This document shows, piece after piece, positions 296 to 13,930 of a DNA stretch of 13,930 nucleotides (position 1 is its first letter; each line of letters starts with the position of its first letter). The notes under the pieces were generated by a model. The model was not told the origin of the DNA. It was given only the letters and a program-made list of their open reading frames with translations, and ran no database searches. The position numbers were made by a program, and so were the translations under genes. The DNA lies in IMG/VR virus record IMGVR_UViG_3300045988_138778, positions 1-13,930 of that record; one strand, given 5' to 3'. Origin of the DNA: a virus.

Positions 296-908
296 ACCTA
301 CACAATACGCGTGGCAAGATTTAGAATACACACCGTACTATCTCAATAAGCACACGGAAGCAGAGCTGCGCAAAGAATATAGTAAACTCCGATCTGTTGT
401 GCGCAAACGTCAAGAGCGTCTTGATAAATCAGAATTTTCGGATCTCCGAGAAGTCAAGCATTATGGCAAGTTACCGCCTGTTGCGCAGATTAAGAACAAG
501 CAGCAACTTGTCTATGCGCTTGCAGAAGCAAAGCGATTTTTGAAGGAAGATATATCAATCACTCGTTTTAAGCGTGAACGTAAAGACATGGTTGCAAAAC
601 TCAATGCCAACGGTTATGAATTTGTTACAAATACAAACTTTTTATCGTTTGTCATGTTTATGGAGACGATGCGCGCCATCGCGCAAAATATGCGTTTTGA
701 CTCGGAAGTGCTCGTAAACGCATATGAGAATGTGACAACCGGCAAAATTTCTGCATCAAAATTGCAAAAGTGGTTTACCGATTTTATCAAAAAACAAGAA
801 CAAGCTGCCTGCGACTTTCCCGATAAATATTCCCGTACAAAAGGGGGTAAGGTGAAAATTGAAAGTAAAGACCTTGAAGAATGGGCAAGTCATTTGTTCG
901 GTGATTGA
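282..908 (+). CDS. Putative terminal protein (replication primer), about 208 aa; start uncertain
   Basis: The ORF sits directly upstream of, and overlaps, the protein-primed PolB gene, which is the phi29 gene 3 / gene 2 arrangement. It is basic and helical, and EYSKLRSVVRKRQERL resembles the phi29 TP N-terminal segment EYARLVKNTKAKIART as I recall it. The frame opens at TTG 255. I prefer TTG 282 because AGGAAAGGAG (264-273) lies 8 nt upstream. There is no in-frame ATG near the 5' end. The function is inferred from synteny. Confidence 0.5.
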   Translation: MAKRKPTQYAWQDLEYTPYYLNKHTEAELRKEYSKLRSVVRKRQERLDKSEFSDLREVKHYGKLPPVAQIKNKQQLVYALAEAKRFLKEDISITRFKRERKDMVAKLNANGYEFVTNTNFLSFVMFMETMRAIAQNMRFDSEVLVNAYENVTTGKISASKLQKWFTDFIKKQEQAACDFPDKYSRTKGGKVKIESKDLEEWASHLFGD

Positions 909-2955
909 TTTTCCGCTTGAAGAATTCGCAGAGCTGCCGGTGCTGGATCGCAAAATCACAAGAACCAAAAAGACAAAATTGCTTGATATTGTGACAGCGT
1001 TTGACATTGAAACAACACGCATTAAATCAATAGAACAAGCTGTGATGTATATCTGGCAATGGCATTTTGCAGATCCTATCAACCTAACTGTCGTTGGTCG
1101 CACTTGGGAAGAATTTGAAGCATTTTGTGCAAGTCTCGAAGCATATATGCGGGCGCTATCCCAAGAAGATTATCATTTGCAGCTTTGTGTTTATGTCCAT
1201 AATTTATCATATGAGTTTCAGTTTTTGCGCGGAATTTATCATTTTACAAACGATGAAATTTTTGCTGTTGACTGCCGCAAAGTCCTTAAATGCACAATGT
1301 ACGATAATTTTTTTGAATTTCGTTGCAGCTATCTGCACAGCAATATGTCGCTTGATGCATATACCCACAAAATGGGCGTTGCCCACGGCAAACTATCCGG
1401 TGTAAAATTTGACTATAATAAACCCCGTTATCCATGGACTCCGTTGTCGGACGATGAATTGGAATATTGTGTAAATGATGTGCTCGGTCTGTGTGAAGCT
1501 TTAACAATTGAAATGCGCCATGATAATGACAATCTGTACACAATCCCTCTAACCTCTACCGGATATGTGCGCCGCGATGCGCGTGCCGCGATGAAACGCG
1601 CAGGGCTGGAACGTCTCGGCGCAATTCAGCCCGATGCAGAATTGTATAGAATGCTGCGCGAAGCGTTCCGTGGTGGTAACACTCACGCCAACCGCTATTA
1701 TACCGGTCAAGTGCTGCGCGGCAAAATCCAAAGTGCGGACCGCAGCAGCAGTTACCCGGATGTGTTGTGTAATTGTCTGTACCCGATGCGGGCATTTGAG
1801 CCGTTGGGCGAGATAACACTTGATGGACTCAAGCGCAAACTTAACCAGCACCGGAAAGCGTTAATAATGCGGATCGCATTAACAGACGTTGAGTTAATCA
1901 ACCCCTGCTGGGGTTGTCCATATCTAACGATTGACAAGAGCCGGAATGTAATTGATCCTGACCGTGACAACGGGCGGATCTTGAGCGCAAAATATCTGGA
2001 GACAACGGTCACAGATGTGGATCTTGCTATTATCCTTAAAGAGTACAAGTTTAGTGGTTTTAGGGCATTTGACTGCTGGCAATCCACCTATGCAAAATTG
2101 CCGCGCGAACTAATTGAATGTGCAATAGATTATTACCGCGCAAAAACCAGTTTGAAAAATGTACCCGGTCAAGAATTGTACTACATGAAAAGCAAAAACA
2201 AACTTAATAGTATATACGGCATGATGGCACAGGATCCCGGCAAGCGCTCCATATTATACACCCCCGAAGAAGAATTTGAAATTGATGAAAAAACGCCAAT
2301 CGAAAAAATCTTGTCACAGAATCTGCGCAATGCCTTTTTGTGTTACCAATGGGGCGTTTGGGTAACAGCTAACGCACGCTACCGCCTTGAAGAGGGTATC
2401 GAACTTGCAGGAGATGGCTTTGTGTATTGTGACACCGACTCGGTTAAATATCTGGGTGACATTGACTGGACAAAATACAACAAAGCCAGAATCAAAGATA
2501 GTAAAGCCTCTGGTGCCTATGCTGCTGACCCATCCGGCAAAATGCATTATATGGGAGTGTTCGAGCCAGAGCACGACATGTGCGAATTTGCCACGTTGGG
2601 CGCGAAAAAATACTGTTACCGCGAAACGCCAGAAAGCCCATTGTGCTGCACGATCGCTGGTGTAAATAAAAAAGAGGGTGCAAAAGAGTTGGAACGCCAC
2701 GGCGGTATTGATGCGTTTAAGCCCGGCTTTGTTTTCAAGGACGCGGGCGGCACAGAATCCGTATACAATGATAGTCCAGAGATAGACAGCATTACAATAG
2801 ACGGTCACACATTGCCAATAACCTCAAATGTAGTTATCCGGGAAAGCACCTATAAACTCGGTATCACATCAGAATATATGGATCTGCTGCTGCGCTGCGA
2901 CTATACCCGAAATGGAATTGGCAGGCTGGATGTATATTTTGAAAATGGATATTGA
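859..2955 (+). CDS. Protein-primed family-B DNA polymerase (phi29 gp2-like), 698 aa
   Basis: Motifs read in the translation:
- ExoI FDIETT (about nt 1000-1017);
- ExoII HNLSYEFQF;
- ExoIII YCVNDV;
- motif A DRSSSYPDV (Dx2SxYP);
- motif B KNKLNSIYG (Kx3NSxYG, about nt 2194-2220);
- motif C YCDTDS (about nt 2426-2443);
- KxY motif GAKKYCY.
The start is TTG 859, preceded by AAGGGGGTAAGGTG. It overlaps the upstream gene by 50 nt. Confidence 0.95.
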   Translation: MKVKTLKNGQVICSVIDFPLEEFAELPVLDRKITRTKKTKLLDIVTAFDIETTRIKSIEQAVMYIWQWHFADPINLTVVGRTWEEFEAFCASLEAYMRALSQEDYHLQLCVYVHNLSYEFQFLRGIYHFTNDEIFAVDCRKVLKCTMYDNFFEFRCSYLHSNMSLDAYTHKMGVAHGKLSGVKFDYNKPRYPWTPLSDDELEYCVNDVLGLCEALTIEMRHDNDNLYTIPLTSTGYVRRDARAAMKRAGLERLGAIQPDAELYRMLREAFRGGNTHANRYYTGQVLRGKIQSADRSSSYPDVLCNCLYPMRAFEPLGEITLDGLKRKLNQHRKALIMRIALTDVELINPCWGCPYLTIDKSRNVIDPDRDNGRILSAKYLETTVTDVDLAIILKEYKFSGFRAFDCWQSTYAKLPRELIECAIDYYRAKTSLKNVPGQELYYMKSKNKLNSIYGMMAQDPGKRSILYTPEEEFEIDEKTPIEKILSQNLRNAFLCYQWGVWVTANARYRLEEGIELAGDGFVYCDTDSVKYLGDIDWTKYNKARIKDSKASGAYAADPSGKMHYMGVFEPEHDMCEFATLGAKKYCYRETPESPLCCTIAGVNKKEGAKELERHGGIDAFKPGFVFKDAGGTESVYNDSPEIDSITIDGHTLPITSNVVIRESTYKLGITSEYMDLLLRCDYTRNGIGRLDVYFENGY

Positions 2956-2980
2956 CATATGGCCGCAAATGCCGTATCAT
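2952..2980 (+). promoter_or_regulatory. Sigma-A/sigma-70-type promoter for the SSB gene
   Basis: TTGACA (2952-2957), a 17-nt spacer, then TATCAT (2975-2980). A perfect TATAAT overlaps at 2980-2985. The -35 overlaps the PolB stop codon. A 7-bp stem-loop (ttgtagc aagaaa gctacaa, 2985-3004) sits at the predicted transcript 5' end. Confidence 0.6.
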
Positions 2981-3036
2981 ATAATTGTAGCAAGAAAGCT
3001 ACAAAAACACAAACCCGAACAAAGGAGTAAACAATC

Positions 3037-3387
3037 ATGAAAATCACAAAGAGCTATCCCGAAAATCTGACTCTGAAACAGGCTTACAACCTGACCCGCA
3101 GCCCCGAAAGCCGCAACATGAAAACGTTAGAAGGTGCAACTTTTAATGTTGAAGCTTATGCCCTGTATGAGGATGCAAACGCCAAAGGTGAAGAGCAGGA
3201 GATTCTTGCAGTTCTTACCAGCGAGGGCGATACGTTCAGCACCATTTCCGAAACGTTTAAGCGCGACTTTGCAGCAATCGTTGATGTTGTCAACCAGTAC
3301 GATGCTGACCTCACCACTGTAGACATCGAAGTCATTGGCGGCGAAAGCAAAAATGGCCGTCATTACATCGATTGCAAGATGAACTAA
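3037..3387 (+). CDS. Single-stranded DNA-binding protein, phi29 p5-like (116 aa)
   Basis: ATG is preceded by AAAGGAG. The size matches phi29 p5 (124 aa). Segments resemble my recollection of p5: ILAVLTSEGDTFSTISETF versus TTIFAADGSLYSAISKTV, and IEVIGGESKNGRHYIDCK versus VKVVQGTSSKGNVFFSLQ. A dedicated promoter and terminator fit a highly expressed protein. Confidence 0.55.
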   Translation: MKITKSYPENLTLKQAYNLTRSPESRNMKTLEGATFNVEAYALYEDANAKGEEQEILAVLTSEGDTFSTISETFKRDFAAIVDVVNQYDADLTTVDIEVIGGESKNGRHYIDCKMN

Positions 3388-3418
3388 CCATTTTCTATTC
3401 TTGACATAATTCTTCCCC

Positions 3419-3462
3419 ATCAAACGGGCGGCGGCATAAAAACCGCCGCCCGTTTGATTTTA
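3419..3462 (+). terminator. Rho-independent terminator after the SSB gene
   Basis: A 16-bp GC-rich stem (3419-3434 pairs with 3443-3458), loop cataaaaa, then ATTTTA. On the minus strand the stem is not followed by a U-tract, so it is oriented for + transcripts. Confidence 0.8.
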
Positions 3463-3478
3463 CGAAAGCGAGTGAAAG

Positions 3479-4543
3479 ATGAAAAAGAACAAACTATACC
3501 TAGACAGCGGATACCTGAACATGGATTATATCATGGGCTTGAAAACACCCTATATTATGGTTGTCGGCGGACGCGGCACTGGTAAAACATACGGTGCATT
3601 AAAATATGTACTTGAGCACCGGATCACTTTCATGCTCATGCGCCGCACACAAACTGCTATTGACCTTGTCAATAAACCAGAGTTTAGCCCCATTAAGCCG
3701 GTCTGTGAAGATATGGGATTAAGCATCAAACCTTTTCCGATCTCCAAGGGAAGCAGCGCTTTTTACGATGTAGATGAAGAGGGCCATAACTTGGGTGGCC
3801 TGCCGTATGGCTACACCTGCGCACTTTCGACAATCTCCAATATGCGCGGTTTTAGCGCGGAAGATTGCAAAATTTGTATTTATGATGAATTCATTCCGGA
3901 AAAACACGAACGCCCGTTGAAAAATGAAGCCGCTGCATTTTATAATGCATATGAAACAATCAACCGAAATAGAGAGTTGAAAGGTGATCCGCCCCTTAAA
4001 ATGCTGTGTCTTGCCAACGCAAACGATATTGCAAACCCCCTGTTTTTAGACATGGGGCTTGTGGCAAGAGCGCAACGGATGATCGACACCAAAACAGAGA
4101 TGTGGCAAGATAATGATCGCGGCATTACTATGATAATGTTGCAGCACTCCCCAATCTCTGCGGAAAAAGCAAACACCGCACTATACCGGCTTACAAAAAA
4201 TACATTGTATAGCGCAATGGCGCTGGATAATGATTTTAGGCAAGAGTATAGCCGGATCACCCCTCAAAAAATCATTGAGTATAAGCCGGTGTGCGTTGTG
4301 GGTGAACTGGAAATCTACCAACACAAATCCCGCGCTCAATATTATGTAACAACCCACAAATCGGGCGTTTGCCCAACCTATGAGAGCACAGAGCGCGGGA
4401 TTCAGATGTTTAACGCGCACTTTTCATGGTTTAGGCTCACATACTATTTAAGCAATACCGTGTTGTTTGAGTCTCCTATCTGTGAAGTTTTACTAGATAA
4501 GTATTTTCGGGAAGGTGCGAAAATCTCAAGTCGAAAAGCATAA
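3479..4543 (+). CDS. DNA packaging (encapsidation) ATPase, phi29 gp16-like (354 aa)
   Basis: Walker A is VGGRGTGKT (about nt 3562-3588) and Walker B is ICIYDEF (about nt 3871-3891). YDEFIPEK, INRNRE and CLANANDIANPLFL parallel phi29 gp16 FDEFIREK, FRNRER and CLSNAVSVVNPYFL as I recall them. Confidence 0.9.
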   Translation: MKKNKLYLDSGYLNMDYIMGLKTPYIMVVGGRGTGKTYGALKYVLEHRITFMLMRRTQTAIDLVNKPEFSPIKPVCEDMGLSIKPFPISKGSSAFYDVDEEGHNLGGLPYGYTCALSTISNMRGFSAEDCKICIYDEFIPEKHERPLKNEAAAFYNAYETINRNRELKGDPPLKMLCLANANDIANPLFLDMGLVARAQRMIDTKTEMWQDNDRGITMIMLQHSPISAEKANTALYRLTKNTLYSAMALDNDFRQEYSRITPQKIIEYKPVCVVGELEIYQHKSRAQYYVTTHKSGVCPTYESTERGIQMFNAHFSWFRLTYYLSNTVLFESPICEVLLDKYFREGAKISSRKA

Positions 4544-4544
4544 A

Positions 4545-4575
4545 AACAGCCCCTGCCGTATTGGCAGGGGCTGTT
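4545..4575. terminator. Shared hairpin terminator between the convergent arms
   Basis: A 13-bp perfect stem (aacagcccctgcc 4545-4557 pairs with ggcaggggctgtt 4563-4575) with loop gtatt. It lies between the ATPase stop (4543) and the tailspike stop (4580). Read on the minus strand it is followed by TTTTA. The + strand tail is weaker (gctgtt). Confidence 0.75.
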
Positions 4576-4579
4576 GCTG

Positions 4580-6565
4580 TTAAGAGATGTTAGGCCGCAA
4601 AATCTTGATAGCAGTCATGCCGTCATGATTATTCCACCGCGGGAAATCCATGGGCGTGCCGTCCATGTTGCGGATCCGGTCAAGCATTACCGGCGAATTT
4701 CCCGGCTGAAAGCCGGATACCTGCACCGTGTACGCATAGGATGCAGGGCGCTTGCAATACAAGATAATAGCATTGCCGTCATTGACATAATACAGCCGGT
4801 CAATGTCGCTGACAACATCCCATGTAACTGTCTTGCCTGCTCCTGGTGTCACGTTATAAATCGACAGATTAAGTTTGCGGTTATCAACCGCACTGATTGC
4901 AAACAAGCCGCCGGTTGTGGGGTTATTGGAAATATAAATGGTGCAATCCACATCATTGATATCACAGATACGGATGCACCCCTGTGAGCTGATGCTACCT
5001 GTCGGAATCGGCATATAAGCAAAAGCCTTGTACTGCTCTGGATCCCCGACCTCTGATTGCCCCGCAACGGTGTACTGTATCTGATCTGTGATTGCAAGGT
5101 CAATACACCGATGTTCGCCAGCCTTGCAAATATACTGGCTGTTGCCGGTAAAAATATACTCTCGCTTGGTGTAGATATATGCATTATTGATCTTGCACAC
5201 CATGGCAGTGACGGGATATTGCCCGATGCTCTGTATCGTAGTAGATACTTTGGCGCTGCGGTTAATTACACCGCCGTCAACCGTCAACTGCGGACTAGGG
5301 CTTGTGCCAATCACTGCAATTGCTGCAAAGCCCTCTTCGGTGGTTGCCGTGTTGTCATCAATCGTATAAATCAGGTTATTGATGTATGCAGCTGCCTTGC
5401 CCGGCCCGTCAAATACAATGCCCCGGCGGCAAGTATCCAGATACAGGTTAGTGATGTGTATATCATTGTTAGTGATTTTAAGTCCGTTGGTATTATCCCA
5501 CCAGGTGTTTGCATCCACCCCCCCGGTGCCGCCTGCCGGAATGCCGTGGTAAGTAATCCAGTTGCAACCAATTACATTAGTCCGACAGTCAAATCCGGTC
5601 TGGCATACCATTGCAAGCAGGTTATTGCAAATGCAATCGGGCGCACGGTCGCCCCAATAGAAAGCCGTGTTACCGGTTACACGCTCTGTTGGGTGTACGT
5701 CACTGAATCCCCATACCGAAATGTTATCCATATAGCAGTAGCGGTTTAACGTGCTAACAGTAGGTTGCAAATACACGCCATAAGATTTGACCCCGCCGAT
5801 ACTTACATTATAGATGTAATTGTCGGTGTATTTGTTGGTGGTAAATACGATGCCACCGATCATGCCGTTGCAAATAATGTCAAGATTTGCAATCACAATG
5901 TTGCCTGTCACATCGTCGCCCGATACCGTAATAACGCCACGACTGCCAAACGCCGTTGGGTTGTCGGTATACTGCAAAATGGTGTCGCTGGTTCCGCGAG
6001 CGGGATCTCGCGAGGATGCCGCGCCATACAAGCTATGCTTAAGCTGCACCGGTGCGCTGATCTTATATGTGCCCACTGGAATGAACAGCGGAAATTGTTT
6101 GGTGTACGTGTTTAGCGTTGCGGTTATATCATCGGTTCCGTCCTTTTTTAGGGGTTGAAACTCTTCGATCGAACGCGGCGAGGGTTTAACAATTTTGGCA
6201 CCGTTTTTGAGCACTGCAAATTTATGAGTCTCACCGTTTTTATCGTTAAAGGGGAATGCGTCAAAATCTTCGGAAAAACCCTCAACAGCAGCAATCGATA
6301 AACCCAAAGATGTGCCTGCAATGACGGTTTCAGCGCTGGCGTTGCCGAACTGGCTGTTGCCGTTGCTCTGTGCGGTCATAACGGGTTTGTTGTTTGCCCG
6401 CAAGGTTAGAGTGGTGCCTGCTTCGATAGTAAACGCGCCAGTGCTGGTTGCGCTTGCATTACCATTAGTAGCTTTATCAAGCTTTTTGTCCGTATTGTTG
6501 CGGCCATCTGTGTCTTTTACGATGTAAGTCTCGCCGTCAATTTTGAATTTGTCAACGTATGGCAT
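4580..6565 (-). CDS. Tailspike / appendage protein with predicted right-handed beta-helix (pectate-lyase-like) domain, 661 aa
   Basis: ATG 6565 is preceded by AAGGGGGTG. GTDDITATLNTYTKQFPLFIPVGTYKISAPVQL matches the usual entry motif of pectate-lyase-3 / tailspike beta-helices (DDT..I...........P.GTY.I). Repetitive N/G/I-rich strands such as NIVIANLDIICNG and ITNNDIHITNLYLD follow. It is the last gene of the structural operon, where phi29 places gp12. Confidence 0.75.
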   Translation of the reverse strand: MPYVDKFKIDGETYIVKDTDGRNNTDKKLDKATNGNASATSTGAFTIEAGTTLTLRANNKPVMTAQSNGNSQFGNASAETVIAGTSLGLSIAAVEGFSEDFDAFPFNDKNGETHKFAVLKNGAKIVKPSPRSIEEFQPLKKDGTDDITATLNTYTKQFPLFIPVGTYKISAPVQLKHSLYGAASSRDPARGTSDTILQYTDNPTAFGSRGVITVSGDDVTGNIVIANLDIICNGMIGGIVFTTNKYTDNYIYNVSIGGVKSYGVYLQPTVSTLNRYCYMDNISVWGFSDVHPTERVTGNTAFYWGDRAPDCICNNLLAMVCQTGFDCRTNVIGCNWITYHGIPAGGTGGVDANTWWDNTNGLKITNNDIHITNLYLDTCRRGIVFDGPGKAAAYINNLIYTIDDNTATTEEGFAAIAVIGTSPSPQLTVDGGVINRSAKVSTTIQSIGQYPVTAMVCKINNAYIYTKREYIFTGNSQYICKAGEHRCIDLAITDQIQYTVAGQSEVGDPEQYKAFAYMPIPTGSISSQGCIRICDINDVDCTIYISNNPTTGGLFAISAVDNRKLNLSIYNVTPGAGKTVTWDVVSDIDRLYYVNDGNAIILYCKRPASYAYTVQVSGFQPGNSPVMLDRIRNMDGTPMDFPRWNNHDGMTAIKILRPNIS

Positions 6566-6580
6566 TATTACACCCCCTTA

Positions 6581-6796
6581 TTAGGTGATATCATGAGTGC
6601 CAGTAGTAATGCTGATAGTTTCGGTTGCGGCGGTGTATGCCACTTCTACACGCGACAGTTTTTCCAGCTCCGTTACTTTATTAAGAGCATTAGTTGCGTT
6701 TGTGCTCGCAGTTGTTGCAGTAGTACGTGCTGTGATATCCTTTACCTCAATATCTTCGCCACCAAGATTAAATTTACTAACATACTGTGCAGCCAT
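6581..6796 (-). CDS. Mini-fibre / small virion-associated protein (71 aa) sharing its N-terminal motif with the tailspike
   Basis: ATG 6796 is preceded by AAGTGAGGT. The N-terminus QYVSKFNLGGEDIEVKD parallels the tailspike N-terminus PYVDKFKIDGETYIVKD. A Thr/Ala-rich segment and a short predicted helix (ALNKVTELEKLSRVE) follow. Confidence 0.6.
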   Translation of the reverse strand: MAAQYVSKFNLGGEDIEVKDITARTTATTASTNATNALNKVTELEKLSRVEVAYTAATETISITTGTHDIT

Positions 6797-6816
6797 ATTA
6801 TTATTACCTCACTTTC

Positions 6817-7443
6817 TTATTTACCGACAATTTTAATAGTTTCGACCGGTTTATCATAAATATGGATATCTCCGCCGGTTACTACCTCGCCAGTATCGGG
6901 TGTAAAGAATCCAAAGCTAATACTGGTATCACTAGCATCGTACTTTGCAACGGCGAGAGATAGAATATAATGCAAGCGTTCCGCTATGCTGGTTTTAGCG
7001 CAGTTGGTGCCCTCAATGTATCGGGTGCCTGCATCCATAGGTTTGATAATAACATACAGATCTGCACCCAACCATATAAGATCGTTAATATTGCGGTTTG
7101 CGCTCGCCGTGGTTTTGAGTTTTTCGTCTGCCGGGGTGATTGCTAATTTTACGCTTGCCCAAAGTTCGGAGAAGTTGCCGATTTTAGTCCAGTAGTTGAT
7201 ATTTTCAATATCAACCCCAATCGGAACAGGTTGTACACTCAAATAACCATCGCCGTTTGTGTCCAGCACTACACAATTTTTAGGATACTGACTTGTAATA
7301 TCCCATTGCAACGGGTCAGCATAAGTGATCGAATTGAGTACAATAAAATCGGCAATCGTTTTGTTTTGGTTTTTCAGCGTTTCCAGAATCCAATCAAGAT
7401 TAAGATTATGAAAATCGCTGTACGGCCATTTTTCAGTAAACAT
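6817..7443 (-). CDS. Putative tail fibre / receptor-binding protein (208 aa)
   Basis: I prefer ATG 7443, preceded by AAAGGCGGTGA, over the track's TTG 7461. The N-terminus FHNLNLDWILETLK is a motif I associate with N-termini of phage tail-fibre proteins from Firmicutes. It lies between the collar and tailspike genes. The function is inferred. Confidence 0.45.
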   Translation of the reverse strand: MFTEKWPYSDFHNLNLDWILETLKNQNKTIADFIVLNSITYADPLQWDITSQYPKNCVVLDTNGDGYLSVQPVPIGVDIENINYWTKIGNFSELWASVKLAITPADEKLKTTASANRNINDLIWLGADLYVIIKPMDAGTRYIEGTNCAKTSIAERLHYILSLAVAKYDASDTSISFGFFTPDTGEVVTGGDIHIYDKPVETIKIVGK

Positions 7444-7476
7444 TATTTCACCGCCTTTCAATATTATTATACGCTA

Positions 7477-8088
7477 TTAGTATATCAAAAGCAAGAACTG
7501 TTGTTTGAATTTATCAATCAAATAATCGTACATGTTCCAATCAGCAACACGGCGTTCCTCTTCGATCATCTGCTGACTGGTTGTTACACCAATGTTGCCG
7601 TGTACTCGCCCTGTGTGTTTTAACTCTTCCTTGCTGTTGCCCTCGCTTTTGCCGGTCTGTGTGCTCTCGTTGGTGCTATCATTGTCATTTTGACCGCTGG
7701 TAACAAGGTTTCCGCTGTCAAAGCCAGCCGCCTTGCTAATATCGGTACTATGATTTTTACCCTTGCCCGTGTCGGTGCTCTTCACATTGCTGTTAGTTTG
7801 ATTATTGTCTGTCCAATCCTCTTGCCGGTCATAGTTTTCAATTGGGTTGTATTCCAGCTTTGTTGTGTTCCACATCTTTTCCCAACTGTCTAAATGTGCG
7901 CTTGACCATATGCCAATGACAGAGCGCATGGTTGCGGGGTTTGAAAAAAGCACTTCCATTTCCGCTGTCTCCATCAACAGATTGTTGATGTACAGTTGTT
8001 TGTCCATGCCATCCGGCAACACAAGCTCATCAAAAATGCTATTGTCGTATTGATACAGCCCTAACAGTGACAAGGTTGCTCTACTCAT
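7477..8088 (-). CDS. Putative lower collar / head-tail adaptor-tube protein (203 aa)
   Basis: I prefer ATG 8088, preceded by GTGAGGGCGG, which overlaps the portal stop (ATGAGTAG). The track's 7477..8178 reading would start inside the portal gene. It sits directly downstream of the portal, as phi29 gene 11 does. The central Asn/Ser/Thr/Gly-rich segment (NQTNSNVKSTDTGKGKN...NDNDSTNESTQTGKSEGNS) fits an extended tube-forming insertion. Confidence 0.45.
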   Translation of the reverse strand: MSRATLSLLGLYQYDNSIFDELVLPDGMDKQLYINNLLMETAEMEVLFSNPATMRSVIGIWSSAHLDSWEKMWNTTKLEYNPIENYDRQEDWTDNNQTNSNVKSTDTGKGKNHSTDISKAAGFDSGNLVTSGQNDNDSTNESTQTGKSEGNSKEELKHTGRVHGNIGVTTSQQMIEEERRVADWNMYDYLIDKFKQQFLLLIY

Positions 8089-8992
8089 CTTCGCCGCCCT
8101 CACTTCCCGCGCTGATCTGCGGCTTGTTGCGCCACTCCACGCCAAGTTTGATGCCAAACATTTTGCTAGTTTGGGCAAAACTCTTTTGCAGCTGATCCAG
8201 CCACAGATCCGCTTTGCTGGTTACTTCCACGTTGTTCGCGTTGACCTCATCGCTGATAAGGCGCTCTTTTTTGTCCGTGTTTGCGTTAGGGATACCAACG
8301 TCCGTGTCAAACATCATTTCCCACTTGCGCAGGTCTGCCAACGCATCACCGGCAATATAGTTTTGCCCCACATTTTGCTGAAAAGGTATCCAAGAGGGGT
8401 TGCCGCTCTGGACATCATACAACGCGGTATCAACAAATGTTGCTGGCTCACCGCTTGCTACACGGTCAAACAGTTTTTTCTGGCTCTCCGCCGTGTTTTT
8501 ATTTTTACCAAAAAACACATAGGACAAACGGCTATTGACAAGGTTTACACCTGCGGTTTCCGCGGTCAATGACATCATATCGGCATAAAATCCCACCAAG
8601 TCCATAACGCTGCCATAATCAGGTTGCAGCTTGATAAGCGTGCATTGCGTGCCGATCTCCAACCGGCGCAAACCTCGAAGCAGGGGATTTGTGACAAGGG
8701 CACGTTTGGGCTGATAAAAGATGTTGTACCCGTCAAGCCCGCACTGCTGCGGGATAACTCCGTACTTGTCAGTGTTGAGTACGGCAATATAGCCGATGCC
8801 GTACAAAACATACAAAAAATAGTCTCTGTCCCACGTTTCCGGCAAATCCCACTTAAATACAGACATTGCTTTTTGCAGCAAGTAGCGGGCAAAAAAGCGT
8901 TGCAGCTCTGTGTTTTTGGTGTGTACCGTGCTAGGGCTGTGCTGACTTACTTCTGCGTTGATGTAATCGTACATATAAGGCGCGGCCTGCAT
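8081..8992 (-). CDS. Portal (upper collar / connector) protein, phi29 gp10-like (303 aa)
   Basis: The size is close to phi29 gp10 (309 aa). KWEMMFDTDVGIPNANTDKKERLISDEVNANNVEVTS parallels gp10 [36 protein letters not shown] as I recall it. I prefer ATG 8992, which lies 8 nt after AAGGGGG and shares one nucleotide with the upstream stop (TAATG), over GTG 9001. Confidence 0.85.
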   Translation of the reverse strand: MQAAPYMYDYINAEVSQHSPSTVHTKNTELQRFFARYLLQKAMSVFKWDLPETWDRDYFLYVLYGIGYIAVLNTDKYGVIPQQCGLDGYNIFYQPKRALVTNPLLRGLRRLEIGTQCTLIKLQPDYGSVMDLVGFYADMMSLTAETAGVNLVNSRLSYVFFGKNKNTAESQKKLFDRVASGEPATFVDTALYDVQSGNPSWIPFQQNVGQNYIAGDALADLRKWEMMFDTDVGIPNANTDKKERLISDEVNANNVEVTSKADLWLDQLQKSFAQTSKMFGIKLGVEWRNKPQISAGSEGGEDE

Positions 8993-9543
8993 TATTTGCA
9001 CCCCCTTGCCATTTTAAGCAATAGCCATACCGGGATTGCTTTTTTCCCCGGCGTGGGCGGCTCTGGGCCGGGGCCGGGCGGATTGTCTGCACTCCATGTT
9101 ACATCATACTTACCAACCGCGTTAGGGATGCCCAAAATCCGGGATGGATCTTGACGGTAACGAGTAGAGCGTCCGCCAACCCAATACTCCCAATGGGTAT
9201 GCACACCGGTTGCATTGCCGGTCTGACCCTGTGTGCCGATCAAGTCACCCGCATTGAGCACCTCTCCGACCTTATGTGTCTGTGCCTTAAAGTGCGCAGC
9301 CAGCCAATAACGTTTGTTGCCCATATCTACCACGATATAGTTGCCCCAACTGTCATTGCCAGTTTTGCCGCCTTGCCAAGTGTGCGCAGTCACAATCGTT
9401 CCGGCCTGCGGGGCAAACGCCAAAAAATCAGTTGGATGCTTGGTGTCAATGCCGCCGTGGTGCGATCCGTCCGAATAATACGGATATGCTGCGGTCACTG
9501 TGATTGTGCTTTCATCGGTGATACATTGCGGATAGCTTGCCAT
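8992..9543 (-). CDS. M23 (LytM-type) peptidoglycan endopeptidase, virion-associated lysin and/or endolysin (183 aa)
   Basis: HxxxD is present (HHGGID), as is HxH (GVHTHWEY), with a G-rich strand GTQGQTGNATG between them. These are the canonical M23 metallopeptidase signatures. ATG 9543 is preceded by AAAGGAG. The C-terminus is a Pro/Gly linker (PPGPGPEPPTPG) followed by a short hydrophobic/basic tail (KKAIPVWLLLKMARGCK). Confidence 0.85.
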   Translation of the reverse strand: MASYPQCITDESTITVTAAYPYYSDGSHHGGIDTKHPTDFLAFAPQAGTIVTAHTWQGGKTGNDSWGNYIVVDMGNKRYWLAAHFKAQTHKVGEVLNAGDLIGTQGQTGNATGVHTHWEYWVGGRSTRYRQDPSRILGIPNAVGKYDVTWSADNPPGPGPEPPTPGKKAIPVWLLLKMARGCK

Positions 9544-9558
9544 ATATAATCAACTCCT

Positions 9559-11040
9559 TTATTCAAAATAAAATCCATTATTAAGATGCTCGCGGATCGC
9601 GCTGATCTCCATTGACGTTGCAGGCGCGGAAAAATCGCTGTCGGAACACATGATATAGCCGGACAAGCTGCTTATCTTGCGTTTCTCACAAACTGGATAG
9701 CCGCGGTGCTCTGGAGCTTCTCCAACCAAGTCCCAAAACTTGCCTAACAGATACGGTGTAAAACCGTACTCTACAACACTGCCCTGTCCACCCCTTGATA
9801 CACTTTCTGCGGTCGCCTGCTGCGCTCCGCTCTGGATGCCGTTGGAAATTGCCGCTGCGTTTTGGTCAAGTCCTAATGTTTCAGCGCCGTTAATCCAGTC
9901 ATGGACTTTGCGGGTAATATCTGCGGCCTGCTGGAAAAATGACTGCGCACCGGCAACTACACCGCCCGCAACTGCCTGCACAACTCCGCCCGCTGTATTA
10001 ACCATGCTTGTGATTTGCCCGATTTGAATCTGCACCGCAACGTTACCGGTTAAAGTCTGGAAAGCGGCTTTATAATCATTACGGGCGGAAAGCTCCAAAA
10101 CTGCATTTCCAGTGTATAGGTCAATTGCCAATGTACCATACAATATATTTGTATTATACAAGCGACTGCTATCAATGTCAATCAATCCAAAACCGGGCAT
10201 ATACATTTTATAGGTGCTATAAGGGGCTGCTTTCAAGTAGGAGTGTTTACTATCTACTGCGGGATTTTTGGGGATCGCAACGTTAAAACGATATTTTAAG
10301 CTGTCGTTATTTTGGTCAAGTATCCAGAATTTAGCGCCAACATCTAATCTCCACCAACCGACCGGCACACTCTCCACAGCGGATGCATCTGGAAAACTTG
10401 CCCCGAACGGCAACCAATACGCAAAGCTGAAATACTGTATAGGATTAAACAGCGCTTTTGCAAGATTGCTGCTAATTTCGTTGGGGTCAATATTGAGATA
10501 GTCGCTATCCGATAGTAATTTTGTCATTAACTTTTTAAAACTGTCTGCCTTACATGCTATTGTGGTAGTAGATCCAAAAGCATTATAGCCGGATGCCTGC
10601 ACGCCAAAAATAAAAGTACCGCCCTGCACGTTATCTGTATAAATCGCGGGCAAGTCTTGCCTTGCTAATCTTGCATAGCTTAATGTCGGGTATGTGGTAT
10701 CTATAATATCAGGATTGACAGCGCTTGCGGCTCGCACAATATACTCTGTACTATTAGCTATCTCATTGCGCCAGCTGGCAAGCGGATCCACAGTCATGCT
10801 TGCGTACCACATGCCGCCCGACCATGTCCAGTTATCAACAAAATAAAATCTGCCAAAATCGGGAATGTATGCATAGTTCCACGCGTGGGGGCTTTCAGAC
10901 TGCCCGAACGCTACAAAACCAATTTCCGGCGCTAACATGCTGCAAGATTCCCGCAACTGACCTTGCACGCCTTTTGAAGTACCGGACGGGCGGGCGGTGC
11001 TGTTCAGTTTTTTGGCAAATTGATATAGTGTAATGTTCAA
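9559..11040 (-). CDS. Tail knob / distal tail tube protein, phi29 gp9-like (about 493 aa)
   Basis: It lies between the capsid and portal genes. The N-terminal pattern (NITLYQFAKKLNST ... NYAYIPDFGRFYFVDNWTW ... MTVDPLASWRNEI ... EYIVRA) parallels phi29 gp9 (NYIMFQN..KWFYAFVT..FEIDVLQTW..FIVREH) as I recall it. I prefer TTG 11040, which lies 5 nt after AAGAGGTG. The track start TTG 11058 falls in the U-tract of the upstream terminator and has no RBS. Confidence 0.6.
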   Translation of the reverse strand: MNITLYQFAKKLNSTARPSGTSKGVQGQLRESCSMLAPEIGFVAFGQSESPHAWNYAYIPDFGRFYFVDNWTWSGGMWYASMTVDPLASWRNEIANSTEYIVRAASAVNPDIIDTTYPTLSYARLARQDLPAIYTDNVQGGTFIFGVQASGYNAFGSTTTIACKADSFKKLMTKLLSDSDYLNIDPNEISSNLAKALFNPIQYFSFAYWLPFGASFPDASAVESVPVGWWRLDVGAKFWILDQNNDSLKYRFNVAIPKNPAVDSKHSYLKAAPYSTYKMYMPGFGLIDIDSSRLYNTNILYGTLAIDLYTGNAVLELSARNDYKAAFQTLTGNVAVQIQIGQITSMVNTAGGVVQAVAGGVVAGAQSFFQQAADITRKVHDWINGAETLGLDQNAAAISNGIQSGAQQATAESVSRGGQGSVVEYGFTPYLLGKFWDLVGEAPEHRGYPVCEKRKISSLSGYIMCSDSDFSAPATSMEISAIREHLNNGFYFE

Positions 11041-11055
11041 AATCACACCTCTTTT

Positions 11056-11087
11056 CAAAAATACCCCGTGCCATAACTGACACGGGG
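11056..11087 (-). terminator. Rho-independent (probably leaky) terminator after the major capsid gene
   Basis: The minus-strand RNA reads ccccgugucA guua uggcacgggg, a 10-bp stem with one G-U pair and a 4-nt loop, followed by UAUUUUU. It lies between the capsid stop (11101) and the RBS of the tail-knob gene. Confidence 0.7.
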
Positions 11088-11100
11088 CTGTTATTAAAAG

Positions 11101-12315
11101 TTAGTCAAGCAGCAGGACAACGGCCTTTTCAGTGTTATCTTGGATCGTCTTGATGGTTGCGTGCTCTGCTGTGTTCCAGTAGCCGCCATCAATGTTCAGC
11201 GGCGTGGTCGCGCTCCACTTGTTGGTATAGCAGTAGCCCAATGCATCACGGTCGTGCATGATGCCAAAAATGCCTGCCTGCTTAACTTCGGCGGTCGCTT
11301 TCTTAACCGCGCCGGTAGTATCGGTGTATACCGGCGTGATTGCGATACTGTCGGGGGTCTCGATGCTCTGCCAAAAATTGATACTCTCAAAATTGCCAAG
11401 CGACAGATAATCGTCATGGTAAGTGGGCGACAAAACCATGGTGCGCATTTGATCATATGCTTTACTGTACAGCGCAACGCGCAGATTCTCCGCGCGGGTG
11501 TGACGCAAAACAGGCTTGGCGTTAATGACGGTTTGATACATCTGGCTCCGCTCGCCCATCAGGCGGGCAATAGTATTAACGCGAGCCGCAACCCAACGCA
11601 TAAAGGGCGCAAAGTTTGCGGGCTGATAGACACTCTGCGCGGTAAGCTCAAGGCCGCTTTCTGCGTTGTACTCGGTCAACAGATGGACAACGCGCGTTGC
11701 CTGCTTTTCGTCCAAAAGGGCACCGATAAAGTTTGCTTGCATGCCGCGGGCGACAGCTTCACGGTAAGACTCTTTATCGTTGTTGCGCTCCGTCATGTTC
11801 ATTGCATTAAAACGCATAAATTCGTCCGCGCCGGACATTGCGACGTCAAACTGATCCTTAAAAGTGGTGTAGCGCTGCTGGTATACTGCGGTACCGTAAA
11901 AGTTAGTTTGCAAAACTTCCTGTTTACTGATCTTGTACATATCCACGCTTTCACCATTGCCAAGTGCGTTAGTGTCGTGACCTGTTGCATCATATGCGAC
12001 AGGCCACATAAAACGCTGATCGTCCTGCATCTTGGCAGCAATGGGACTCATCTTGCGCAGTGCATTGCCGTATCGCGGCAAATCCATTTCCAGACTAGTA
12101 AGAGGGCTAGTATAGTCGCGCACTGCGTAAATTGACCGGCTCCAAAGCTGTGACAGTGCGTTAATAATGGGGTCATAGCCGGTTTTAAGAGCGGTCTGCG
12201 CGACAGAAACAAACTGTTCAGGCGTTGCAATATTGGTAATCACTTTCTGCCCGGTTGCCTGTTCAACGGCCTCGCCAAGGATGGACGCGGCCTGTGAAAT
12301 AGTCATATCATTCAT
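11101..12315 (-). CDS. Major capsid protein, phi29 gp8-like HK97 fold (404 aa)
   Basis: It follows a scaffold-sized gene. The C-terminal core GIMHDRDALGYCYTNKWSATTPLNIDGGYWNTAEHA parallels phi29 gp8 [35 protein letters not shown] as I recall it. It is the largest head-module ORF and is followed by an attenuating terminator. Confidence 0.85.
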   Translation of the reverse strand: MNDMTISQAASILGEAVEQATGQKVITNIATPEQFVSVAQTALKTGYDPIINALSQLWSRSIYAVRDYTSPLTSLEMDLPRYGNALRKMSPIAAKMQDDQRFMWPVAYDATGHDTNALGNGESVDMYKISKQEVLQTNFYGTAVYQQRYTTFKDQFDVAMSGADEFMRFNAMNMTERNNDKESYREAVARGMQANFIGALLDEKQATRVVHLLTEYNAESGLELTAQSVYQPANFAPFMRWVAARVNTIARLMGERSQMYQTVINAKPVLRHTRAENLRVALYSKAYDQMRTMVLSPTYHDDYLSLGNFESINFWQSIETPDSIAITPVYTDTTGAVKKATAEVKQAGIFGIMHDRDALGYCYTNKWSATTPLNIDGGYWNTAEHATIKTIQDNTEKAVVLLLD

Positions 12316-12325
12316 GGTTTACATC

Positions 12326-12616
12326 TCATTTCTGTGTTGCGGGTTTGGGCGGCAAGATAATGCTTGCAAGCACATCTTCCGCCGTCTGGGGTTTCGGCTG
12401 TTCAGTCGCCGCAATGTTCATGGTTTTGATCTGTTCGCCAAGTGCGTTAATTGCGGCAATAATACCGCCCGCATCCTCTACGGGTGCAGCGGGTGCAGCG
12501 GGTGCAGCGGGTGCAGCGGGTGCAGCGGGTGCAGCGTTGTCAAGAGTGACAAGCTTTGCAAGATCGTCTTTAGTGTAGCCTGCACGGCACAGGGCAATAA
12601 TATCATCAATAGTCAT
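12326..12616 (-). CDS. Putative scaffolding protein with (Ala-Ala-Pro)x6 linker (96 aa)
   Basis: Both size and position (directly upstream of the capsid gene) match phi29 gp7 (98 aa). ATG 12616 is preceded by AAGAGGTG. It has a short helical N-terminal module (DDIIALCRAGYTKDDLAKLV), the AAP repeat, then a helical C-terminal part. The function is inferred from synteny. Confidence 0.55.
   Translation of the reverse strand: MTIDDIIALCRAGYTKDDLAKLVTLDNAAPAAPAAPAAPAAPAAPVEDAGGIIAAINALGEQIKTMNIAATEQPKPQTAEDVLASIILPPKPATQK
12481..12536. repeat. Perfect 9-bp tandem repeat (cgggtgcag) x6 plus a partial copy
   Basis: Read directly. Six identical 9-mers span 12481-12534, followed by cg. On the minus strand this reads GCT GCA CCC x6 and encodes AAPAAPAAPAAPAAPAAP inside the scaffold-like gene. 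Confidence 0.95.
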
Positions 12617-12619
12617 AGT

Positions 12620-12829
12620 TTACACCTCTTTCAATACAGTTGTTTTAGCGGGGTCATTGATAAGTTTGACAAGCGTGTCTTTATCGCCTACTGTCATAGG
12701 GCCACATGCAGCATTCTGGTTATAATTGGCGGTGTATTCGCTATAATAACCGATGCCAAGTTGCTTGCATTTTCTGTATACAATACACGCTTGGACGCTG
12801 GTAATGTCGGCATACATAACAACATACAT
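12620..12829 (-). CDS. Hypothetical protein (69 aa)
   Basis: ATG 12829 shares one nucleotide with the upstream stop (TAATG). The stop lies 3 nt before the scaffold gene start. I recognised no motif. Confidence 0.6.
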   Translation of the reverse strand: MYVVMYADITSVQACIVYRKCKQLGIGYYSEYTANYNQNAACGPMTVGDKDTLVKLINDPAKTTVLKEV

Positions 12830-12981
12830 TATGCATCACCGTCCATTTTGCCTATGTGCTCGCAGAGTTTTACAATGGCAGCGGTGTTTTCCTTGATCGT
12901 GGTGTTACTCTGCCACCACATCAGCAAAAAAGCCGCAATCGGAAAACCAACCTGCTGGATGATAGTACTGATCTCTTCCAT
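12829..12981 (-). CDS. YvrJ-like small membrane protein, holin candidate (50 aa; absent from the ORF track)
   Basis: My own translation from ATG 12981, preceded by AAGTGAGGTG, gives MEEISTIIQQVGFPIAAFLLMWWQSNTTIKENTAAIVKLCEHIGKMDGDA. There is one hydrophobic segment (VGFPIAAFLLMWW). The pattern ME..I..I..VGFPIA..L resembles the YvrJ family of small Firmicute proteins as I recall it. It is the first gene after the late promoter and leader. Confidence 0.6.
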   Translation of the reverse strand: MEEISTIIQQVGFPIAAFLLMWWQSNTTIKENTAAIVKLCEHIGKMDGDA

Positions 12982-13012
12982 GGTTTACACCTCACTTTCA
13001 GACGGACGGATA

Positions 13013-13098
13013 TACAAAAAGCGGGAAAAGACTCTTGACCCGCTACAAGGTCGTGCGCCGGATTCCGTCCGTATAGCTTGCGCATCTTTTCCCGCTTT
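13013..13098 (-). terminator. Promoter-proximal structured leader RNA ending in an intrinsic terminator
   Basis: On the minus-strand RNA, aaagcgggaaaaga (13098-13085) pairs with ucuuuucccgcuuu (13031-13018), a 14-bp helix, and is followed by UUGUAUAU. The helix encloses two smaller hairpins: ugcgc..cgga-cggaa-uccg-gcgca, and gacc-uuguagcg-gguc. It lies directly downstream of the -10 element and 30 nt upstream of the first late-gene ATG. Confidence 0.6.
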
Positions 13099-13099
13099 C

Positions 13100-13128
13100 A
13101 TAGTATCATATTATATTGTAAGTGTCAA
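13100..13128 (-). promoter_or_regulatory. Consensus sigma-A/sigma-70-type promoter heading the structural/lysis operon
   Basis: Minus strand: TTGACA (13128-13123), a 17-nt spacer, then TACTAT (13105-13100), with TG at the extended -10 position (aTGaTACTAT). The -35 overlaps the stop codon of the upstream small ORF. Confidence 0.65.
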
Positions 13129-13313
13129 GAGTTAAAATAAAATTTCCACTCCATATGGGGATTGACTAGCAAGGTGTCAAACTCATGTTTTGCAAGTGCG
13201 TAAGGCAGATCACCATATTCTCCATTATAAATGCAACGGTCGTTATCATACACGCGGATACTTGTTTTAGGCTGCATTGACACACACACCCGGTAAAAGT
13301 CACTGATTGTCAT
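13125..13313 (-). CDS. Small early protein (62 aa), paralog of the left-arm 47-295 product
   Basis: I prefer ATG 13313, which lies 9 nt after AAAGGGGA, over the track's TTG 13319. Similarity to the left-arm ORF is described under that feature. Confidence 0.7.
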   Translation of the reverse strand: MTISDFYRVCVSMQPKTSIRVYDNDRCIYNGEYGDLPYALAKHEFDTLLVNPHMEWKFYFNS

Positions 13314-13328
13314 TGCCAAACATCCCCT

Positions 13329-13529
13329 TTATATAGTTGTCTGCCCATACGGCAAATCATTATTACATTCGTTGCGTTTATCCTCATTGATAAGGTGCTT
13401 TGTTCTGCGTGCCATTGCGCACACGGGCAAATGGTCACATGTTGCGCATGATTCATTGACACCACAACTGCACAACAGATCATTGATTGCACGTTCAAGC
13501 GCGGTGCGCTTTGCTGTGTAAGTTGTCAT
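13329..13529 (-). CDS. Cys-rich small early protein (66 aa), possible zinc-binding regulator
   Basis: ATG 13529 overlaps the upstream stop (ATGA). It carries the cysteine cluster CSCGVNESCATCDHLPVC (CxCx5Cx2Cx5C). The function is unknown. Confidence 0.6.
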   Translation of the reverse strand: MTTYTAKRTALERAINDLLCSCGVNESCATCDHLPVCAMARRTKHLINEDKRNECNNDLPYGQTTI

Positions 13530-13687
13530 ATAATCACCTCAGTTCTAATAGATGTATCATCAGGCAGCCCCATAAAATCGCAATATCTGTCAACCGCCTT
13601 TTCTGCTTCATCGGGGCGTTGCCCGCGATAAATTTCAACATGGTTTAGCACGTCATACGCAATGACTAACACATTTGTATATTGCAT
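13526..13687 (-). CDS. Small acidic early protein (53 aa; absent from the ORF track)
   Basis: My own translation from ATG 13687, which lies 8 nt after GAGGAG, gives MQYTNVLVIAYDVLNHVEIYRGQRPDEAEKAVDRYCDFMGLPDDTSIRTEVII. Its stop overlaps the next start (ATGA). It has about 10 acidic and 5 basic residues. Confidence 0.55.
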   Translation of the reverse strand: MQYTNVLVIAYDVLNHVEIYRGQRPDEAEKAVDRYCDFMGLPDDTSIRTEVII

Positions 13688-13746
13688 GTCAATCACTCCT
13701 CGCAAATATCAATTACAATACCGAATACCCACAACAGATTAAGCAT

Positions 13747-13884
13747 GTTTCAAACCTCTCTAATAACTTGCCCTGTGCTATACTCCGGGTTAATCTTGCG
13801 AGCCTGTGCAAGCGCTTCGTCAAAACTTTCTGCATTAACAATGAGTCCGCACAAGTCATCACCCGTTATAAACCATTTTTTCAT
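13747..13884 (-). CDS. Small early protein (45 aa; absent from the ORF track); its start codon lies inside the right ITR
   Basis: My own translation from ATG 13884, the ITR copy of the ATG at 47 with the same ITR-borne RBS, gives MKKWFITGDDLCGLIVNAESFDEALAQARKINPEYSTGQVIREV. Confidence 0.5.
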
Positions 13885-13930
13885 TTCAAATTCTTCCCTT
13901 TCTATGTCGGTGTAACGTATAGCGATATGT
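13876..13930. repeat. Right inverted terminal repeat (ITR), 55 bp
   Basis: Exact reverse complement of 1-55. Confidence 0.95.

Follow-up and report, generated by a model that had tools for sequence, protein, structure and literature searches.

A three-way-junction RNA at the head of the late operon of phi29-like phages shares the helix order of phi29 packaging RNA

Introduction

In phage phi29, the DNA packaging motor, with its gp16-type ATPase and gp10-type connector, requires a structured RNA, the prohead or packaging RNA (pRNA) (PMC5066667). The ring of pRNA molecules is closed by an intermolecular contact in which a bulge pairs with the D loop (AACC with GGUU) (PMC5066667), and reviews treat pRNA as unique to phi29 and its Bacillus relatives (PMC5066667; PMC11476376). 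In papers on Clostridium podoviruses and other phi29-like phages, pRNA comes up solely as a feature of phi29, and our survey of the literature returned no report of pRNA outside Bacillus phages. Here we describe an RNA encoded on the minus strand of a 13,930-nucleotide (nt) stretch of viral DNA, positions 1 to 13,930 of IMG/VR record IMGVR_UViG_3300045988_138778 (hereafter, the window), where a strong promoter leads into a three-way junction immediately ahead of the late genes. A preliminary description of the window had offered two readings of this RNA: a gate on late expression of the phage lambda kind, or a terminated product that is itself functional and resembles pRNA.

Results and Discussion

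A promoter runs into a three-way-junction RNA

The promoter consists of a −35 hexamer, TTGACA (13123-13128, minus strand, as are all elements of the RNA and its leader region given below), and, after a 17-nt spacer, an extended −10 element, TGaTACTAT (13100-13108); a promoter scan scores 10 of 12 hexamer matches plus the extended −10 TG, as the preliminary description had read it. The −35 hexamer is kept in 10/10 close relatives, with the spacer free to vary. Transcription is predicted to start at ~13095-13092. The TGA stop codon (13127-13125) of an upstream 64-aa open reading frame (ORF) falls within the −35 hexamer; therefore, transcripts starting further upstream would also enter the RNA.

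The junction is closed by helix A, whose 5′ strand (GAAAGCGGGAAAAGA, 13085-13099) pairs with 13031-13017 and whose 3′ strand (UCUUUUCCCGCUUUU, 13017-13031) ends in the first bases of a U-tract. Positions 13098-13085 and 13031-13018 form a perfect 14-base-pair (bp) helix, extended by G13099-U13017. The 14-bp helix and the U-tract ahead of the late genes are thus present in the DNA much as first described, but a transcript that starts 7 nt past the −10 element (~13093) would retain just ~9-11 bp of helix A. Two arms lie inside this helix. Arm C/E (13054-13084) comprises helix C (13084-80 with 13058-54), a one-sided 8-nt 5′ bulge (AAGCUAUA, 13079-72), and helix E (13071-68 with 13062-59), which is capped by the pentaloop CGGAA (13067-63). 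Arm D (13037-13052) is a hairpin (13052-49 with 13040-37) with the loop UUGUAGCG (13048-41), in which UAGC (13045-42) is complementary to GCUA of the bulge (13077-74). The strand that returns from arm D to helix A is the purine-rich AAGAG (13032-13036), with the consensus A-N-G-A-R in the alignment of homologues and in our covariance model R2.

When the segment 13098-13010 was folded with ViennaRNA, the three-way junction with its two enclosed hairpins, proposed earlier by eye, was both the minimum free energy and the centroid structure (−35 kcal/mol, z = −3.4), and 1 of 200 shuffled sequences folded equally well. A descriptor of the same shape, which is not specific in AT-rich genomes (CI644P1, Athos and phi29), gave a single match in the window with a score of 33; 6 shuffled windows scored 27 or less.

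Directly after helix A stands UUUUU (13020-16), part of a U-tract (UUUUUGUAUA, 13011-13020) that is invariant in the 10 close relatives. Together, helix A and the U-tract form a predicted terminator-like site, which would yield an RNA of ~78-83 nt, from ~13095 to ~13017. A terminator scan did not call this site because the “loop” enclosed by helix A measures 53 nt; unlike a simple intrinsic terminator, which is a short GC-rich hairpin with a 3-8-nt loop and a U-tract, the stem here encloses a conserved, structured 53-nt insert. The Shine-Dalgarno sequence (GUGAGGUG, 12995-12988) and the first late gene (50 aa, ATG at 12981) follow at 12829-12995, leaving a space too short for a further promoter. 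Homologues of the 50-aa protein stand after the RNA in several clades. A 54-aa ORF that overlaps the RNA (12921-13085) was rejected as coding because variation in the region is compensatory in the stems and the loops change length.

The RNA is one of a covarying family

We collected relatives of the window by a capsid protein search, which gave 35 viral contigs, and by capsid alignment, which gave 80 metagenome and 80 viral loci; most were human gut and rumen contigs of 12-14.5 kb. Homologues of the RNA were detected with a scan for a CGGAA-centred motif, and then with two covariance models, R1 and R2; a scan for a stem followed by a U-tract recovered only part of them. Distant relatives share no sequence similarity, yet in 31 of the 35 viral contigs the motif scan recovered this design ahead of the late genes. 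R1 and R2 matched almost all loci with sufficient upstream sequence, in more than 100 gut and rumen contigs, with exactly one copy per locus and always on the strand of the capsid gene. The RNA is kept across clades whose major capsid proteins are as little as 37% identical; it ranges from 70 to 83 nt, with an uninterrupted helix A of 9-15 bp.

Among 66 distinct homologous sequences, 96.3% of the cells in paired columns hold a pair, compared with 35-50% when partners are slid. All of the 24 modelled pairs, including 11/11 in helix A, covary with double changes, which is the outcome of the covariation check that the preliminary description had proposed for related genomes. The covariation score is 1.006, against 0.216 in shuffles, and none of 500 shuffles reached the observed value. 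G-U and U-G pairs number 75 and A-C and C-A combinations 9; the structure is therefore that of an RNA read from the late strand. We regard the RNA family as certain.

Conservation is not confined to the stems. The 10 close relatives share 98.5% identity in the RNA but 84-88% in the flanking genes, and their promoter spacers are scrambled, indicating that selection acts on the loops as well as on the stems. The few changes respect the fold: L004 has a compensatory G:C to U:A change in helix A, and in L003 one bulge base and one D-loop base have changed with their pairing kept. The E loop is near-invariant, being CGGAA in most sequences, with CAGAA, CGAAA, UGGAA and CCGAA as variants. Searches with Rfam 15 of the whole window and of the 151-nt region 12990-13140, at E values up to 10, returned only noise, with no matching family and no cis-regulatory family among the results. 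This RNA was the sole conserved structured RNA detected in these phages.

The bulge and the D loop change together

The 3′ part of the 7-8-nt arm C/E bulge complements the arm D loop in nearly all sequences. The pairing proposed for the window, GCUAUA with UGUAGC, is present as 4 Watson-Crick pairs, or 6 pairs including G-U, and it is one of ~20 complementary versions among the 66 distinct homologues. These versions include GCUA/UAGC (the window), GGACA/UGUCC, GAACA/UGUUC, GAGU/ACUC, GGUCA/UGACC, AGUCA/UGACU and GACCA/UGGUC; UGCAC/GUGCA, UGUGC/GCACA, UGUCA/UGACA, UGACA/UGUCA, UGUAC/GUACA, CAAAUC/GAUUUG and UGUUGC/GCAACA; and GCACAA/UUGUGC, GAGC/GCUC, GCUG/CAGC, GACC/GGUC, CGC/GCG and UGC/GCA. 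Cognate bulges and D loops share a mean of 4.33 contiguous Watson-Crick pairs, compared with 2.39 for non-cognate combinations, and none of 10000 permutations attained the cognate mean. Such covarying complementarity between bulge and D loop is a hallmark of phi29 pRNA. A further pairing proposed earlier, in which the 3′ CCCGCU would find an alternative partner in AGCGGG, fared otherwise: AGCGGG does occur twice, but the alternative is supported by no relative.

The RNA and the motor proteins have phi29 counterparts

We took as reference the structure line of the Rfam pRNA model, RF00044, on phi29 (145 bits). In it, helix A is followed by 1 nt, helix C, a 9-nt one-sided bulge and helix E with a 6-nt loop; C′ comes directly after E′, and UUU, a D hairpin with a 5-nt loop and A′ complete the molecule. 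The helix order of the RNA described here, namely A, C, one-sided 5′ bulge, E, C′, D, A′, is identical, so that the general phi29 pRNA architecture seen in the preliminary description holds against the consensus structure. Both RNAs are three-way junctions with their 5′ and 3′ ends paired in helix A; both carry the bulge on the same side, with the pairing bases at its 3′ end; and both combine a covarying bulge/D-loop complement (3-6 bp here, 4 bp in phi29) with freedom of primary sequence. Each has its own strong promoter in front.

The phages are likewise comparable. The window is essentially a complete genome of a small podovirus of the phi29 type. It encodes a packaging ATPase of the gp16 type (3479-4543, plus strand; phrog_2150 at 1.7e-34), which matches phi29 gp16 in PDB 7JQQ (E = 1.1e-10) and 5HD9 (E = 1e-10), and an upper collar connector of the gp10 type (8081-9001, minus strand; phrog_2038 at 1.6e-25), which matches phi29 gp10 in PDB 1H5W (E = 7.5e-9). 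If the RNA is a pRNA, the ATPase would presumably be the partner of helix A and the connector its docking site.

Some features set the two RNAs apart. The E loop is a conserved CRGAA pentaloop here; phi29 pRNA lies at the genome end behind early genes, whereas the RNA here heads the late operon, often with no terminator. phi29 pRNA assembles into a ring of 5-6 RNAs, binds the prohead, is required for packaging and is absent from virions, whereas the present RNA is known from its sequence.

Neighbours of the RNA differ among lineages

A near-consensus promoter ends 2-14 nt before the RNA in ~50 of the 66 distinct homologues and is also found in L200-L204. A rumen clade lacks the promoter; there, a small terminal ORF ends with its stop codon directly against helix A. 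Downstream, a short AU-rich spacer separates the RNA from the Shine-Dalgarno sequence and the beginning of the first late gene. Five uninterrupted U residues immediately follow helix A in no clade but the window's own; some other clades have U-rich stretches.

These observations bear on the first reading in the preliminary description, a gate like lambda pR′-tR′. According to this explanation, the promoter is constitutive, helix A and the U-tract stop nearly all transcripts, an early protein from the small upstream ORFs antiterminates to turn the late genes on, and the short RNA is a by-product like 6S RNA. The promoter, the GC-rich base of helix A and UUUUU are indeed all invariant in the window's clade, no other promoter precedes the first gene of the late operon, and a constitutive-looking promoter that makes a short terminated transcript ahead of a whole late operon is what lambda has. 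The terminator is not conserved across the family, however: the unbroken U-tract is limited to one clade, whereas the RNA and its loops are kept across clades down to 37% capsid protein identity. A by-product would not be expected to preserve invariant loops and a covarying bulge/loop pairing, which here are under strong selection. We identified no Q-like protein and no Q-binding or pause element; the four small upstream proteins had no significant Pfam match and none resembled Q, although lack of a match does not exclude such a function, and collinear relatives have the ATPase gene in their place. We therefore consider a Q-type gate improbable as the conserved function of the RNA; a partial terminator or attenuator role in the window's own clade is possible.

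The collinear relatives are five more distant faecal genomes in which the polymerase, the ATPase and the late genes follow one another, with the RNA and its own promoter directly after the packaging ATPase gene. A cultured phage shows a similar arrangement. In the Amedibacillus phage AD70P3 (L197, OP172639; Guelinviridae), this mini three-way-junction RNA (~6296-6367, minus strand) lies behind a TTGACA promoter in the 123 nt that separate the packaging ATPase gene from the structural genes. Model R2 did not recover it, yet it is clear in the fold, with the bulge AUAUCCAA, the E loop CCGAA, the D loop GGGA and the pairing UCC/GGA. In MT836587 (L204), a phi29-like genome of 13.7 kb, a tRNA-Gln (UUG; 8489-8564, minus strand) stands upstream of the late genes and starts 0-3 nt past the 3′ end of helix A, so that processing by RNase P would be expected to free the junction RNA as a separate molecule.

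Two smaller observations concern individual relatives. In L021 (~1790-1810), a perfect 18-nt palindrome, ATGTTCCACGTGGAACAT, is found in one clade between the RNA and the first late gene and looks like an operator. In L200 (MT836263), ARAGORN called a tRNA-Pro (CGG; 3917-3993, minus strand) within a region aligning to the M23 peptidase and connector genes, which may be a false positive.

A miniature packaging RNA is the favoured interpretation

Because the motor proteins of these phages are homologous to the sole motor known to need an RNA, and because the only conserved structured RNA detected in them shares the pRNA blueprint, including covarying interlocking loops, we favour, as slightly more probable than not, the view that this RNA is a miniature counterpart of phi29 pRNA made as the leader of the late operon. 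Of the two original readings, the functional, pRNA-like product is thus the one that phage type, helix order and covarying pairing better support. Its position directly after the packaging ATPase gene in the collinear relatives links it to packaging. Signs of a discrete RNA are the promoter, helix A and U-tract of the window's clade and the abutting tRNA-Gln of MT836587.

The strong promoter, of the sigma-A/sigma-70 type, is placed to make the RNA as the very first part of the late (structural) transcript. If the packaging interpretation is correct, free RNA would arise in the window's clade by termination at helix A and the U-tract; elsewhere it might be released by nuclease cleavage in the AU-rich spacer or, in one lineage, by RNase P at the abutting tRNA. 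Molecules that are read through would serve as late mRNA, and a supply of one RNA per late transcript would suit the low ratio of RNA to capsid protein that a prohead needs. Bulge/D-loop pairing between neighbouring RNAs would then build a ring at the connector vertex of the prohead, as in phi29; the conserved pentaloop and the arms may touch the prohead, and helix A may present the gp16-type ATPase.

We put the chances about even that a mini pRNA of ~70-80 nt serves the motors of a large, mostly uncultured phi29-like radiation in gut and rumen Firmicutes, AD70P3 included. In that case C. perfringens phages would probably be included as well, with a larger form of the RNA.

A box before the first late gene can pair with the E arm

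The preliminary description had also pointed to a complementarity between arm C/E and the DNA just downstream of the U-tract. This pairing is real and its coordinates were right, although the letters had been slightly mis-transcribed: the box UCCGUCCGU (13002-13010), which we call anti-E, can form 9 bp with ACGGACGGA (13072-13064), that is, with the last bulge base, the 5′ strand of helix E and CGGA of the loop. Anti-E boxes lie 8-11 nt past helix A, immediately before the Shine-Dalgarno sequence of the first late gene. Equivalents exist in a second clade (UCCGGCU(G)) and in L201 (CUUCCGGC), with sites in L145-L171, L201 and L203; the complementarity spans 7-10 bp, and in at least two clades changes in the box are matched by changes in the E stem. 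Complementarity of at least 6 bp is found in 21 of the 66 sequences, compared with 1 of 66 in an upstream control. A match in MT836587 was discarded, being the D-loop of the tRNA.

The anti-E box invites the explanation that the RNA is a trans-acting small RNA with some role other than packaging, either a decoy or regulator of a host factor, or a regulator whose E loop pairs with the anti-E boxes of late mRNAs and so times translation of the first late (membrane) protein. The signs of a discrete RNA would suit this proposal as well, as would the conserved single-stranded pentaloop and the covarying complementarity. Most clades have no anti-E box, however, and a regulator of this kind would leave the pRNA-like bulge/D-loop pairing and helix A unexplained; we judge it, if anything, slightly less plausible than the lambda-type gate. 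The box may serve to inactivate RNA molecules that are still joined to the mRNA, or to link the RNA with the translation of the first late gene.

Evidence against a packaging role, and a cis-acting leader

Several observations weigh against the packaging interpretation. There is no sequence or covariance-model similarity to pRNA in either direction: RF00044 has no match in the window at E values up to 10, nor in AD70P3, CI644P1, phiCPV4 or Athos, and model R2 has none in phi29. At 70-83 nt, compared with 117-174 nt, the RNA amounts to half of pRNA domain I; it has no domain II, with only a short spacer between helix A and the Shine-Dalgarno sequence, and its short helix A does not have the CCA-type bulge that, in the long helix A of phi29 pRNA, binds the ATPase. 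The linkers A-to-C, C-to-D and D-to-A measure 0, 0-2 and 3-5 nt, against 1, 3 and 0 in phi29, and the helices may therefore stack differently. The N-terminus of the window's connector shows no basic RKR motif, which in phi29 gp10 binds pRNA. The anti-E box is not accounted for by a role in packaging. In many clades no terminator follows the RNA and the Shine-Dalgarno sequence comes within 3-20 nt (4 nt past helix A in L034), so that a free RNA would require processing. Intra- and intermolecular bulge/D-loop pairing look alike in sequence, and the junction linkers would permit an intramolecular contact. Expression, binding to proheads and a part in packaging are all predicted from sequence.

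The main alternative is a cis-acting leader of the late operon. In such a leader, the bulge/D-loop pairing would be an intramolecular tertiary contact giving a compact fold, which the linker lengths and the similar lengths of arms C and D might allow by placing arm D beside arm C. The CRGAA loop could bind RNA polymerase or a phage or host protein and bring about processive antitermination, as do HK022 put and Bacillus EAR; alternatively, the leader could protect the 5′ end of the mRNA or control translation through E-loop/anti-E pairing beside the Shine-Dalgarno sequence, with which the covariation of the box would agree. The RNA always lies between the promoter and the first late gene, on the late strand, whether its upstream neighbour is the ATPase gene or small early genes; this constancy, which persists even after genome rearrangement, is expected of a cis-acting element, and the many clades in which no terminator follows the RNA are compatible with one. 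A strong terminator-like hairpin inside the late operon, after the capsid gene (11088-11063), has to be read through, which an antiterminating leader would explain. Like put and EAR, the RNA is a structured element of ~70 nt directly after a strong promoter, heading a long operon with an internal terminator-like site. The hosts and phage families are unrelated, however, and binding to RNA polymerase is hypothetical here. The put element consists of two adjacent stem-loops and is not known to have an enclosing helix or loop-loop pairing.

A regulatory leader of another sort is represented by three-way-junction riboswitches, such as the purine riboswitch, in which a closing helix and two arms joined by a tertiary Watson-Crick contact lie in a 5′ leader, as here. 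Contacts of this kind between riboswitch loops are usually conserved in sequence. In the present family, by contrast, the contact runs from bulge to loop rather than from loop to loop, and its sequences change fast yet stay complementary, as is typical of pRNA. Helix A is highly stable and has no competing Shine-Dalgarno pairing or other alternative partner, so there is no expression platform, and no Rfam cis-regulatory family was matched. For any cis-acting leader, the agreement with pRNA topology in a phage with a homologous motor would be a coincidence; the tRNA of MT836587, sited between the RNA and the late genes, would cut the leader off the mRNA; and helix A with the U-tract of the window's clade looks built to terminate the transcript. 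A cis-acting leader is accordingly possible, but we hold it to be clearly less probable than a miniature pRNA.

Were the packaging interpretation to hold, prohead RNA would not be confined to Bacillus phages, RNA-dependent packaging motors would be far more widespread than the known Bacillus phages, and the RNA component would be ancestral to the whole lineage of gp16-type motors. A second family, much smaller and highly diverse, would bear on the question of why a single motor lineage requires an RNA: it combines pRNA topology and covarying interlocking loops with phages that have a homologous ATPase and connector. It would also define a minimal RNA for such a motor. With more than 60 natural sequence variants in hand, the family would provide new self-assembling three-way-junction modules for RNA nanotechnology, and because AD70P3 is cultured the idea is directly testable. 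If the RNA instead acts in cis, it would represent a new class of leader for phage late operons, distinguished by an unusual tertiary pairing that evolves fast.

Larger RNAs in related phages

Structured RNAs occupy comparable gaps in two other phi29-like phages, in which relatives are too similar or too few for covariation. In the Clostridium phage phiCPV4 (L205, NC_018083), the gap before the scaffold and capsid genes (16130-16344, minus strand), equivalent in position to that of the window, contains a terminator hairpin, a promoter-like site and a highly structured RNA of ~130 nt (z = −4.6). This RNA reads as a larger pRNA-like fold, with a long interrupted helix A, helix C (CACAGAC/GUCUGUG), the 5′ bulge CGCCA, an E hairpin (GGG-GUGGAA-CCC) and a D hairpin (GGGU-UGGC-ACCC) whose loop UGGC complements GCCA of the bulge. 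Its conservation across 17 C. perfringens phage records is 92-100%, and some of these records annotate it as a hypothetical protein.

In the Enterococcus phage Athos (L206, LR990834; classed in Salasmaviridae), the region between the replication genes and the scaffold gene (~4585-4790, plus strand) holds a promoter (TTTACA-17-TAAAAT) and a structured RNA of ~130 nt, in which a long helix closes a multi-branch junction (z = −4.0). The RNA is followed by a strong intrinsic terminator, after which a separate late promoter stands; the region did not match Rfam pRNA. By its syntenic position, the Athos RNA is a candidate stand-alone small RNA gene.

Other features of the window

The plus strand of the window encodes a protein-primed family-B DNA polymerase (859-2955; PHROG match) and a phi29-type single-stranded DNA-binding protein (SSB; 3037-3387; PF17427, 27.5 bits against a cut-off of 25), as well as an ORF that we list as a candidate terminal protein by its position, having no family match. 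The structural genes on the minus strand include those for the major capsid protein (11101-12315), an M23 peptidase, the connector, the lower collar and a tail protein, and they converge on a terminator shared with the plus-strand genes (4545-4575). The only phage relative found in GenBank by BLAST is MT835998, an unannotated human-faecal contig of 85% identity; by ATPase, the nearest cultured phages are the Amedibacillus phage AD70P3 and Clostridium innocuum phages, at 26-29% identity. A scan of the window for tRNA and transfer-messenger RNA gave no match.

The shared terminator is a GC-rich hairpin of 13 bp, flanked on either side by T-runs, that separates the ATPase gene (ending at 4543) from the convergent tail gene (ending at 4580); it looks like a bidirectional terminator resembling TD1 of phi29. 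A perfect GC-rich hairpin (CAAACGGGCGGCGG...CCGCCGCCCGUUUG, 3415-3458), readable on both strands, lies between the SSB-like and packaging ATPase genes and is the source of the only Rfam near-hits in the window, which are spurious. Within a 499-aa structural gene (9559-11058) there is a perfect 12/12 consensus promoter (TTGACA-17-TATAAT; 10153-10181, minus strand); it stands downstream of the hairpin that follows the capsid gene (11063-11088) and may drive the connector and tail genes from within the operon.

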